Source: Paramecium tetraurelia
Taxonomy: Eukaryota
Direction of reading: 5' to 3'
DNA length: 64,000 nucleotides
NCBI GenBank assembly: GCA_000165425.1
Contig: CT868207.1
Coordinates: forward strand, 186,001 to 250,000
Shown here one piece after another: positions 22,647 to 27,751 of this stretch. Each line of letters starts with the position of its first letter. The stretch's first letter is position 1. The translations under genes and the position numbers were made by a program. Under the pieces are notes generated by a model. That model made no database searches. It was not told where the DNA came from and worked only from the letters and a program-made list of their open reading frames with translations.

Positions 22647-24076
22647 ATGAGTTAATCAAATCCAAGTCACAATTATTATTCGCAAGGTGTATCAGATAAA
22701 TTCAAGCCTCCTTTCAATTAAAAATTACTCAAAGAAAAAATTAATGAATTACAGAATGCTATTCAAAGAACAGAAAAAGAATATAATTAAGCAAATCAAA
22801 TAAGTGATAAGACAAATAGTAAGGCTAAATAATCATTAAATTCGTTCGATAGGACCTAAAATTAAAAAGATTCATAGATTGAAAACCTAATTGTTGAAAA
22901 TCAAATTCTAGTTAAAGCCATTTAAAAATTAGAAACTAAGGTCAAGAACTAAGTTTAATTATAAAATGAAAATCAAACCCTTAAACAAAATGTTGAAGAC
23001 ATAAAATCAGAAAATGAGTTATTAAAATAAAAAAAAACGTTAAAAAATGATAGCAAATTATCATCTGATGCTGCCCTAGGAATTTTAGCAGCAAAAAGAA
23101 GCTAAGAAATCTAAATATTAACTAATGAAGTCAAAGAAACAAAATAGAAAAATCAAAACCTCTAAGGAAAATTAGATAAACTCATTTTAGAGAATTAGCA
23201 CTTGTAGTCTATAATCAAAAATTCAGAGAACTAATAATTGAGATCTGATTCATAGAATAATTCAATTAAAAAAAATAATTTTGTTGAAAAGCATTCTGAT
23301 TAAAATTAAACTAAATAAAATGAGCAAATATTTTAACTCTAGTTAGAACTAGATGATGCAAAAAAAACAATAACACAACTACAAAAATTAAATAAAGCAA
23401 ATCATTATACATAATAATCATCTAATTATAAATTTAGTAATTCTAATGATAAGATATCAAAAAGTTAATCTTTAGAACCATCTCATTTTGATAAAGATAA
23501 GAGGATGAAAGAGCTAGAAGAAAAGATAAAAAAGCTATAATTTGAAAAGGATAGCCAACTTTATACTACAAAATTAGAATGTGCACAGGATTTGAAATAG
23601 TTTCAAGAGAAATTGAAATAGGAGTACAATTAAAAATAGTAATTTGAAAATGATTACGACAAGCCAACTTAAGATAAAGTAAAGAAATTGAGTGCTGAAA
23701 ACACTAAATTTCAAATAATGCTTGAAAGATAGAATAAGGAAATCATGAATATGGAGAGAAAATTTACTGGTATGCATATAATATTTATACATCTTTAGAA
23801 TTATTAATGTAAAAGGAAGAACTTTAATAAAATTTGTTGAAAGAACAACAGTTTTAAGGGTATCTTAAATAGGAAAAGTCTTTGTTACAAAATTCATTGA
23901 AAGAAAAAGATAAAGAAATCAGTGAGCTTAAGGATGATATCATCAAACTTTCAAAGGAAAGACAATAATTAAAAGATCAAATAGAGAAGCTAAAATTTGA
24001 AGTCAAAATGAGTTAAATTAAAAGCAGTAATAGACCTCAAAGTCATCAAAGTGAAACTAGTAAAAGGAACAGATGA
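22647..24076 (+). CDS. Coiled-coil protein
   Basis: Q/E/K/N-rich heptad code-6 frame with one intron near 23770. TGA at 24074-24076. Confidence 0.75.
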
Positions 24077-24196: not shown

Positions 24197-26136
24197 ATGA
24201 GAATATTAATTGTTAATGGATATGGAAAATCAGAAACTGGTAAACAATAATTTGAAAGATATTGTGGATAAATACGAAAAGTAAGCATTATAAATATCAT
24301 ATAGTTATTCTTGAATTAGAAGGAATTATTGGATACAGAGACAGAATTTTTTTCTAGAGATGCAAATGATTTGGATGAATTCCTTTACGATTAAGACTCT
24401 GGTTATTCTAAATAAGAAGCAGCAAACTAATTTAATTTTATAGATTTTGTTTTCATAGAAATAGATGCCAACCTTAGACCATGGTCGAAGCATTTAAAAA
24501 AAGTAAATGTCTAATTCTCATATTAGGTTATGATATTAATTAGAATGTGCTTAAGAACTAATAAAGTTTTATTAGCTACAGCTGGAGCAATGCAAGCATT
24601 GGTTTTTTTTGTAGCCACAAACTTAGAAACTGTAAGAATAAGTTTATATTGTTAGCCAGTTGAGGTGGTAAATGGTCCATAGGGCGGACCTCTTGGTGAT
24701 ATGAGCAAACTTTCAAAGTCCCTTGATTAAATGACAAAGCATGAATATTTTTTGGACAGCATAACAGGTGATCTCTACGGGATCTACTTCGATAAGGTAG
24801 AATCAGCTAATTGTTGGATTCCCATAGCGAATTGTGGTATACACTCTAGAAGAGCTGTTGAAGAGTTCAATACAGTTGGAAAGTACATGTTGCAGGCTCC
24901 TGTTTATAAACCCTAAAAAATAAAGGAAATTTATGGACTTTATACATCTACATAGGATGAGGAAATATGCTTGATAAAAAAGAACTTCGTTTAAAATTAC
25001 TTATTTAAGGATGTTATGTAAGAATTTTTAGTTCATTCTAAACATGCATGGGACATCCATCCATTCAATGTATTGAATCCAAAGAAGACATTTGTTATTT
25101 TAGCAGATTCATCAAAAGGACCTCAAGTTATTACAGTAAATGAAAACATTGTTGGTTTATAATTTGATATTAATCCAAAATATCCAGAAACACAATTAAT
25201 TCTTAGAAACTTCATTATCCATTATTTGATTTAAATACGATCTTGTGTTAATAAACCATTAACTATCTAATAAGCTAATAATGATTTAAGAAAGAACAAG
25301 TTAGATTTAGAGAACATGACTAAATAATAAGCAGAAAGCCAATAAAAGGGTGAAAGAACAGTTTTTAATTTTGAAGTGCTAACTAAATTTAAGCATGTGG
25401 GATTTACAGGTAAAAAGGCAAAGAAATTGGAGATTGTTATGAATAATGCTATTAATGATCAAGGACAATTACAAGAGGCCATGAAAACAATGAGATAGAA
25501 GTAGTCTCCAAGGACTAAGCAATCAACAGAGGAGACTGATCTAGAAAAGTCTAAGTTTGCTAAGTTTTCAACCAAATTGAATCATGAACATAGGGATACA
25601 ACTGAGAAGTTCAATAAAACAGCTGCTGAAATTAGATAGATGTTGCATCCCAATATAGATGAATAATTATTGCCTGAAAATGAGCCTTTGTGGGTATCTA
25701 TTAGGTATTCAATATTTTATAGGTGCCTGGAACTATGAATACTTCAATGTTGGCTAGCACTGGATAGAGGATTAGATAAAGGCCCTAATCTACAACTTAA
25801 AGTCGTACTTTTAAATTGACCAGAGTTCAAACTGCAAAATCTAGAGTTTCAAAGGGTAATACTACTAAGGAGGACTATGATTTATGCAGAGAACACCCAA
25901 TAGTCAGATGCTCTTCTCCTTATATTACAAATATAGAGAGGGATAGGTTGGAGTAGAGATAAAAAGACAAATAAATAATTGGACCTAGAAGCATTAGGAC
26001 AAGTGTTGTGAGCACAATCAAAGGGGGGACTCCCTTTATTTTGTATGACAATCCATATAGCAATCCGGCAGATTTCAAACACAGGGACGAAAACAAGTCT
26101 AGGTGGGTAGGTGGTCAGAATTTCAGAGTTTGTTGA
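24197..26136 (+). CDS. Class I glutamine-amidotransferase-fold protein lacking the catalytic triad, with a long C-terminal tail
   Basis: MRILIVNGY, IDFVFIE...RPW, KVLLATAGAMQAL, FLVHSKHAWDI, ILADSSKGPQVI, NIVGLQFDINPKYPETQLILRNFI. Four introns. Confidence 0.78.
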
Positions 26137-26155
26137 TTATAACTATAATATTATA

Positions 26156-27751
26156 ATGGATTAAAAAAAAAGTCTGAGTGATTTGAAACAAGCATTGGCT
26201 TATCGCAATAGAAGCAAAGATATTATTGATGTAATTGCAAAGGGAGTTCAAGATATTAAATTCTTCAAAGAAAAATAGTAGTTATTTGATCCAGCATTAT
26301 ATTGTTAAATGCTTAAAAAGATCTAATTGAAAGAATTCAAAAAGGGAGAAGTCATATTTCATTATGGTAACATCATTTTGATAGGTAGGTTCTAATAATG
26401 TTGAATAGTTTTATGTAATTCTCCAGGGTTAGGTTGCAATTTTGTGTCCAAATGATAAAAGCATTACTCACCAATAGGTTATCGAAGAGTACAAGAAAGG
26501 AATAGATTCTAATCCGTAATAACTGAGGAGATAATCGGCCATCTACAGTCCTCGATTGTCCGCCTTCAATAATAGAGCCCTAAAAGATATAATTATGGCA
26601 CAGGCTTATGGGCAATTTTTTAGGAATCAGTAATTATTCAATTATATAGTTGATTTTTTGTAGATATTCAAAAAGTCGATTAAGAATCCTTAATTGAAGA
26701 ATACACTAATAATCCCAACCAAATATCAGTAGATAAATGGTTGGATAATTTGGTGAAAAGACTCTTCCCAAGTTTACACATAGTTAATATGTGTTGTAGT
26801 GGCGACTAATTTGGAGAAATCGCTCTTATTGGTAATGTGACTAGAACAGCAACTGTCTTGTGTACTCAGGATACATTAATGATAACGTTAGCCAATCCAG
26901 ACTTTCAAGCCATTTTATAATAATATCATGATCAGGTTAAAAATGAAAAGATTTCTCTACTCAGAAATTTTGAACTCTTTAGCAAATTATCTGATAAAAG
27001 ACTTAGAGGTATTTTGGAAAATATTATTGTTTAAAAACCTTCGATGTTTAGTGTGATTTATATGGAGAATTCTATTCCAGAATACATCTATTTTATTAAA
27101 CAAGGAGAAATCGAATTACTCAAGGTATTTCCTAAGAATAAAACAGTCTCAATTACTTTACTTTAAATAGGTTGTGTCTTTGGACATGAAGAAGTTCAGC
27201 AATCCATACCTAGAGAATACAGAGCTATTTCAAAATCATCTCAGTGCGAACTATATTTATTACCAGTTGAAACTATACAATAATTTGACAAGAAAAACTC
27301 ATAATCTGTTGAAAAGAAATTCCATCATGAAAGATTGGAAAGGTTATTAAGTGATAAAAAATCTTAGAAAACTAGCTCATAAATACCTTAAACCTCTATT
27401 GAATTGTATAAAACAGTCTTTGAAAAAGACTATTCAAGTCTTTTCAGTCATGCTTTACTTTAAAAAAGGTACTATTTTATGCTACTTAGAATCATATCAC
27501 CTAAACATAGAAAAATGTTATCAGAACCATTTACTCCTTTCTTTGATATAGATAAGAAATCTTTCTCTTCCAAAAAGCAATTAACAGATAGGAAAACTAT
27601 TAACACCACTACAACAAGATATAATAAAGAAAACTCCACAAGACAATTCAGTACATAAACTACAATTAATATACACAGACACTTATTCAGTCCTAAAGTC
27701 AGTAAAAGACAACTAGACACCATCATGCCCTTCAAAAAAATTTTATAATGA
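26156..27751 (+). CDS. Cyclic-nucleotide-binding domain protein (two CNB domains)
   Basis: FKKGEVIFHYG...FYVILQGQV, GDQFGEIALIGNVTRTATV, YIYFIKQGEIEL...GCVFGHEE...REYRAIS. Confidence 0.9.

Follow-up and report, generated by a model that had tools for sequence, protein, structure and literature searches.

The 64,000-nucleotide stretch of Paramecium tetraurelia DNA analysed here (the window) carries, at positions 24,197 to 26,136, a gene whose product was described in a first-pass annotation as a glutamine amidotransferase fold with its catalytic residues replaced, kept as a scaffold or ligand sensor and possibly linked to cilia. Is the protein a dead amidotransferase, and what might such a protein do?

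Gene structure, transcription and selection

Splicing out four GT-AG introns (24, 24, 24 and 29 nt) leaves a single open frame under code 6, and its translation is identical at 612/612 residues to the P. tetraurelia protein A0CW68 / GSPATT00001237001. The features of the gene are as follows.

24197..26136, + strand: coding gene, 5 exons, 612 amino acids under code 6 (A0CW68 / GSPATT00001237001)
24281..24304, + strand: intron 1, 24 nt, in frame and stop-free (alignment and ohnologue comparison)
24503..24526, + strand: intron 2, 24 nt, in frame and stop-free (ohnologue counterpart 29 nt)
24632..24655, + strand: intron 3, 24 nt, in frame and stop-free (ohnologue counterpart 28 nt)
25694..25722, + strand: intron 4, 29 nt (spliced junction in one RNA contig)

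The intact gene with clean introns described earlier was recovered as this one frame, and the motifs quoted for it are all in place: MRIL at 24197, IDFVF at 24440, KVLLA at 24563, VHSKH at 25031, LADSS at 25100 and VGLQF at 25151, with FKHRD of the terminal region at 26074. The quoted C-terminus has to be corrected, as the true end, GGQNFRVC, lies three residues beyond it.

Introns 1-3 are free of TGA. If read through, they would give 8-residue insertions, which are missing in all 14 database homologues aligned, and neither of the ohnologue lengths of introns 2 and 3 (29 and 28 nt) is divisible by 3. The junction of intron 4 was observed in one public RNA contig; for introns 1-3 the RNA runs, with a depth below about 4, listed no joining reads. 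The succession of three 24-nt introns (24281-24304, 24503-24526 and 24632-24655), all in frame and without a stop codon, is an observation in its own right: in Paramecium, stop-free in-frame introns are counter-selected because retained copies escape nonsense-mediated decay.

Transcription was detected at low depth in all three oligo-dT RNA runs, with 134, 113 and 82 reads on a 2.5-kb stretch (the ends of neighbouring genes counted in), nearly all in the orientation expected of + strand RNA. In one of the three runs (X21), opposite-orientation reads cover 24320-24487 at about 1.4x depth, possibly antisense RNA or noise. Variant letters at 25435, 25453, 25502 and 26058, seen in runs X21 and X23 in 3-4 reads each, are most likely ohnologue reads or strain differences. 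Compared with its ohnologue on contig C557, the gene has a dS of 0.48 and a dN/dS of 0.025 over 610 codons (0.029 for the domain and 0.019 for the tail). It is intact, expressed and under strong purifying selection.

The surrounding DNA is AT-rich (GC 22-32% per 2 kb). Upstream, at 22647-24076 (+), lies a Gln/Lys/Asn-rich gene with a coiled-coil look, a transcribed 3' end and no Pfam match. The next gene, at approximately 26158-27751 (+), has its apparent start about 20 nt past the stop codon and holds two cNMP-binding stretches (PF00027, E 7e-17).

Fold and catalytic positions

Single-sequence searches of Pfam and PDB gave no match, and a 10-sequence profile no relevant match in either. The cut-off of Pfam GATase (PF00117) was not reached by the window protein or by the homologues scanned, and the gene is absent from the nine Pfam GATase loci of its own genome. 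NCBIfam gave sub-threshold matches only, among them amidotransferase models on P0058. With a 103-sequence profile, we were able to match archaeal GMP synthase subunit A in the PDB over the C-terminal half (E 0.001), an alignment that places W261-x-x-H264 on WASH and QFDIN on QFHPE. Weak PDB profile matches to G-protein alpha (positions 8-56, E 0.013 or worse) were discarded as chance.

An AlphaFold2 model was built on the 103-row family alignment (mean pLDDT 79.8, above 90 over most of residues 1-330), and residues 1-325 were used for structure matching. Foldseek returned 134 matches at E<=0.001, the best listed being class I amidotransferase-fold proteins with 2vkt at the top (E 1.3e-7). The best VIA-align match among 48,161 chains was PabA (8rp0), with Z 17.6 and rmsd 2.6 over 184/188 residues, followed by GGP1 (9k7i, Z 17.3), MetA (2vdj) and ADC synthase (8hx6), both at 17.0, and, lower down, TM1158 (16.4), human GMPS (16.3), SpuA (15.6) and gamma-glutamyl hydrolase (14.4). 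Z-scores within 1 of each other are tied, so these matches do not single out one parent subfamily. P87-W88 aligns with the D-W motif of stand-alone amidotransferases in the P. tetraurelia genome, a likeness in sequence that hints at kinship with the GGP/TM1158-like group. The class I fold first proposed from the letters is thus borne out by AlphaFold with Foldseek, and by VIA-align as well: as modelled, the protein is shown to have the fold of the class I glutamine amidotransferase superfamily. Its predicted parts and catalytic positions are listed here.

24197..24631, + strand: N-terminal half of the class I amidotransferase fold, residues 1-129, with I81, P87-W88, K107 and the nucleophile elbow (model, profile alignment)
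24581..24583, + strand: A113, catalytic Cys position (hhalign register and model; Cys in 0/230 homologues)
24656..24952, + strand: family-specific structured insert, about residues 130-228, a three-strand meander (model, conservation)
24953..25243, + strand: C-terminal half of the fold, residues 229-325, with the W261-x-x-H264 strand motif and the remains of QFHPE (profile and model)
25166..25168, + strand: D300, catalytic His position (profile alignments; His in 27/74 homologues)
25172..25174, + strand: N302, catalytic Glu position (profile alignments; Glu in 8/258 homologues)

The triad register comes from local hhalign alignments (probabilities low, 5-14%) with six intact amidotransferase loci of P. 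tetraurelia, plus a CTP-synthase-like locus for the elbow. They align A113 with Cys, D300 with His and N302 with Glu, and the elbow with GICFG/GICYG of the genome's own enzymes. In the model, the elbow is formed by strand 108-113 and then helix 114-125, and the register agrees across hhalign, the PDB profile match (for the C-terminal part) and the modelled elbow. Intact enzymes are present elsewhere in the genome, the nine Pfam GATase loci having GICxG in 9/9 and HPE in 7/9. At least six further amidotransferase loci (L012, L013 and L015-L018) have an intact GICFG elbow; a further locus (L011) resembles CTP synthase, and motifs are also intact at L014 and L019.

Residues were counted over 282 distinct stored sequences, near-identical ones included, with 230 spanning the elbow and 258 the C-terminal motif. 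The elbow residue is Gly in 118, Ser in 56, Ala in 34, Thr in 9, Asn in 6 and Gln in 4, with three singletons, and in no case Cys. The C-terminal motif has His in 58 and Glu in 8 of the 258. Dropping rows more than 80% identical left 74 non-redundant rows, 27 of which keep His at the catalytic position. Among the 15 family loci of P. tetraurelia, where three stretches are misaligned, probably at introns, the elbow has Cys in 0/14 readable cases and the His is found in 0/13.

A review lists Cys, His and either Glu or Asn as the triad, of which Cys is indispensable (PMC7605207). Since the third member may be Glu or Asn, it is the losses of Cys and His that are decisive. The replacement of all three residues claimed at the outset is right for the window protein (A113, D300 and N302), and across the family only the Cys loss is complete. 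The family alignments show the Cys nucleophile to be lost throughout, the His and Glu positions being free to drift, and the His that persists in the family is a frequent vestige. From sequence and model together, we infer that the window protein does not hydrolyse glutamine. With an enzyme fold, its catalytic residues missing and a gene that is intact and selected, it qualifies as a pseudoenzyme.

Another Cys/His pair in a competent site would contradict this, as the first-pass annotation recognised. C234/H264, the best candidate for such a replacement pair, is not supported: C234 lies in a strand and is Cys in only 37/74 homologues (Val in 24, Ile in 7). Nor did H264 qualify as a new catalytic His, being the ordinary His of a W-x-S-H-x-D strand motif, with Asp in 13/74.

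Family distribution and the C-terminal tail

A 17-row profile detected 1,329 representatives (50% identity clusters) at E<=0.001 and 277 at 1e-30. Across the matches listed for the family searches (the best 150 of the 1,329 for this profile), named members come only from ciliates (Paramecium, Tetrahymena, Ichthyophthirius, Pseudocohnilembus and Blepharisma) and oomycetes (in the oomycete search described below, Phytophthora, Nothophytophthora, Plasmopara, Pythium, Globisporangium, Aphanomyces, Achlya and Saprolegnia). Three members, from Pseudocohnilembus, Achlya and Saprolegnia, bear the automatic name 'glutamine amidotransferase domain-containing'. Searches of the literature, covering mostly open-access papers, by gene and protein identifiers or by topic found no description of the family. 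It is an old protist family common to ciliates and oomycetes and previously undescribed in the literature searched.

A FastTree tree (412 columns) was made from 98 sequences, each spanning 72% of the profile or more, after near-duplicates had been taken out. In it, the closest Tetrahymena relative, TTHERM_00442780, belongs to the group that is sister to the clade of the window gene plus another Paramecium group (support 0.83). An Asn-rich clade of 19 sequences (the P0066, P0086-P0158 group; support 0.99) is a separate expansion in which the QFH His is often kept. In the oomycete member P0167 of Thraustotheca clavata (1105 aa), the C-terminal half contains leucine-rich repeats and DUF4476, through either a genuine gene fusion or an annotation that merged two genes.

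The oomycete search scored 8,000 candidates at most, with 12 of the 15 query members not returned and no control gene, and gave 49 rows, 16 without a species; Hyaloperonospora, Peronospora and Bremia account for 0 of the 33 that are named. One tree sequence without a species name groups with Plasmopara. The genera of the 33 named rows are all known to form zoospores, and Peronospora and Bremia are downy mildews that are not known to do so. H. arabidopsidis has no zoospores and most flagellar genes are missing from it, according to the report on P. infestans flagellar proteins (PMC3471859). The absence from downy mildews among these rows is suggestive and would be in line with a flagellar link.

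In a scan of 185,579 prokaryotic genomes that detects close relatives only, the sole match was L022:1501-3438 on CBDIHM010000003.1, a contig of 150 kb binned under 'Bacteroidia' in GTDB. The match is a code-6 orthologue with 55-72% identity by exon and Ser at the elbow. It was rejected as a prokaryotic member, its tiny introns, 51-60 table-11 stops per frame and GC of 30% being those of a ciliate contig; by these sequence features, CBDIHM010000003.1 is evidently ciliate contamination of a bacterial genome bin.

Beyond the domain, the protein continues into a tail with several conserved islands.

25244..26133, + strand: 287-residue tail (residues 326-612), partly disordered, with conserved islands (model, motif counts, dN/dS 0.019)
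25394-25402, + strand: tail island HxG (family conservation)
25643-25731, + strand: tail island LHP...WVPG (family conservation)
from 25918, + strand: tail island PY...E (family conservation)
26074-26124, + strand: terminal tail motif FR...KW...F (family conservation)

The insertion of about 100 residues after the elbow and the tail of about 280 residues noted earlier correspond to residues 130-228 and to these 287 residues. Tail islands near 451-470 and 541-560 are modelled with a pLDDT of about 89-91, and the last 135 residues are basic, with 25 K+R vs 12 D+E. Motifs were counted in the 87 family sequences of at least 500 aa and compared with shuffles: K.W...F occurs in 38 tails (0.5 in shuffles), FR...K.W in 27 (0.5), HxG in 31 (2.0), LHP...WxxG in 20 (0.0) and PY...E in 28 (7.6), numbers that show conservation rather than prediction since the patterns were picked from the alignment. 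Searches with the tail gave no sequence match among PDB chains and the ohnologue only in the P. tetraurelia genome. The modules of microtubule inner proteins include Mn, PYG, GFG, NWE, SNYG, ELLEn and DM10 (PMC10973386); compared with their descriptions in that paper, the tail motifs could be assigned to none, and they have no Pfam match.

Ciliary proteomes, function and related systems

The guess of a ciliary role gains independent, indirect support from relatives in two Tetrahymena ciliary proteomes, and none from the PDB, where the 35 profile matches include no ciliary chain. The first proteome is Supplementary Table 6 of PMC10105768, which reports dibucaine cilia demembranated with NP-40 from wild type and RIB72 mutants. 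TTHERM_00442780 (entry 552) is present in 9/9 detergent-extracted axoneme samples at 4.1-7.4 normalised spectra, with an ANOVA p of 0.18 across wild type and RIB72 mutants. Its paralogue TTHERM_00467310 (entry 711) is likewise found in 9/9 samples, at 1-3 spectra, and the two remaining Tetrahymena paralogues are absent from the table. In the second, from another laboratory (PMC12399478), the larger table, whose size points to the TMT set (about 4,000 proteins), holds three of the four paralogues (values of about 25.0, 23.2 and 18.4), and the smaller label-free set (about 1,000 proteins) holds only TTHERM_00442780. The Tetrahymena cross-linking supplements (PMC10541116) gave no match, although their identifier format may differ. 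PITG_05678 is absent from the P. infestans flagellar list, which was compiled from proteins already described elsewhere (PMC3471859). No match came from the supplement text of PMC3091696 (2,525 characters) or PMC11642885 (5,159 characters) either, amounts too small to be informative.

With a probability of about 0.6, we consider the window protein to be a non-hydrolysing, non-catalytic component of the axoneme, present at low stoichiometry, in which the insert and domain offer an interaction surface and the tail acts as a tether. The dead amidotransferase domain and the insert would together form a folded surface that binds a partner. The middle islands of the tail, with their high pLDDT, probably pack back onto the domain, and the basic aromatic motifs at the tail end, judging by composition and analogy, probably tether the protein to microtubules or to an axonemal complex.

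The protein could also serve the cell cortex or the cytoplasm as a non-catalytic scaffold and only contaminate cilia preparations, which we consider unlikely. Spectral counts are low and the rows near entry 552 are mixed: dynein light chains and a PG-rich repeat protein stand there alongside a Rab, a band-7 protein, a leishmanolysin and a ubiquitin-ribosomal fusion, the last four of which, with the low counts, make carry-over possible. Levels were unchanged among the rows listed, both in the RIB72 mutants and in the RSP3A/RSP3B knockouts, where no family member was flagged among the 2/4 and 2/3 rows listed from PMC12399478, and no solved axonemal chain matches. Against this stand the recovery of two paralogues in all nine detergent-extracted samples, in a table with no row named CTP synthase, amidotransferase, glutamyl hydrolase or ribosomal protein, the recovery in an independent laboratory's ciliary proteomes, and the restriction of the 33 named oomycete rows to zoosporic genera.

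Less likely again is a protein that has lost catalysis but continues to bind a glutamyl group, serving as a glutamine/glutamate sensor or as a reader of the gamma-glutamyl branches on polyglutamylated tubulin of the axoneme. The elements of the pocket are indeed kept better than the triad in the 74 rows: the oxyanion-strand Gly in 63, P87 in 71 and W88 in 72, W261 in 67, H264 in 56, and Gln or Glu at position 117 in 43. GGP1, SpuA and gamma-glutamyl hydrolase are, moreover, among the structural matches. However, the kept pocket residues are also structural, the window protein itself has Ile (I81) at the oxyanion Gly, position 117 is variable (otherwise L7, H6, Y4 and S4), and with the leading Z-scores tied the structure does not single out the ancestral subfamily.

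We regard as improbable an active enzyme whose site has moved to the interface of insert and domain, or which uses an elbow Ser in some lineages. The conserved residues of the insert are N135, D163, G167, D168, W183, N188, G190 and H192, and the most conserved polar residues of the 74 rows lie there (D168 in 71, D163 in 68, N188 in 66 and H192 in 61), with E231 at 65; on sequence, D163, D168, N188, H192 and E231 could form a site, and Ser is found at the elbow in 56/230. Yet no nucleophile is invariant: other members have R, K, S, I or further residues in place of H192, C234 varies as described above, and C102 is in a helix. Ser at the elbow is combined with the His in five clusters, 0/5 with an acid at the third position. 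The insert also matches no enzyme fold: folded alone from homologue P0140 (pLDDT 85), it gave a best Z of 3.7 and no Foldseek match at E<=0.001, which is not proof of a new fold.

Least likely of all is an ancient alveolate-plus-stramenopile family in which a gamma-glutamyl-cleaving enzyme became a dead reader of tubulin polyglutamylation, whose retained pocket would grip the glutamyl branch of axonemal tubulin tails while the basic tail held the lattice and the insert relayed a signal to an axonemal partner; if true, it would be a new fold among tubulin-code readers.

The non-catalytic axonemal component remains our preferred reading, and if the ciliary placement is true, the protein would be a lineage-specific axonemal component drawn from a metabolic fold. 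It could then account for unassigned densities in Tetrahymena cryo-EM maps and serve as a marker of oomycete flagellar loss. The family is large (1,329 clusters) and has no Pfam model, and neither its ciliate nor its oomycete members keep the nucleophile; the amidotransferase names on three of its members would mislead metabolic annotation.

With class I amidotransferases (PabA 8rp0, GMP synthase subunit A 8gr1/2a9v, GGP1 9k7i, the glutaminase domain of CTP synthase 2vkt and MetA 2vdj), the window protein has in common the fold (Z 15-17.6, rmsd 2.6-3.9), the order of motifs and their register. Unlike them, it shows only 9-16% identity and no Pfam GATase match, its family has lost the Cys throughout, it carries the 100-residue insert and the 287-residue tail, and the members scanned have no synthase domain. 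The GIFT domain of IFT52, a ciliary protein, is not known to be catalytic. As a distantly related alpha/beta domain, it matches at Z 8.8 (5fms, rmsd 3.8, 184 aligned), far more weakly than true amidotransferases, and the window protein, with its own insert and tail, is not IFT52.

Pseudo-amidotransferases and ciliary pseudoenzymes are both kinds already known, and automated names already see the fold in some members. Jhc1, a ciliary-tip pseudoenzyme of non-mammalian vertebrates, is reported to be likewise (bioRxiv 10.64898/2026.02.04.703868) a dead metabolic fold in motile cilia of a restricted lineage. It derives from thiamine triphosphatase and so differs in fold and taxa, and its localisation and function were tested experimentally, whereas the present protein is known by computation. 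Finally, herpesviruses also retain amidotransferase homologues deficient in catalysis, vGAT/ORF75, for their interactions with other proteins (PMC7605207); these derive from PFAS and belong to the viral tegument, whereas the present family is cellular, stand-alone and protist.
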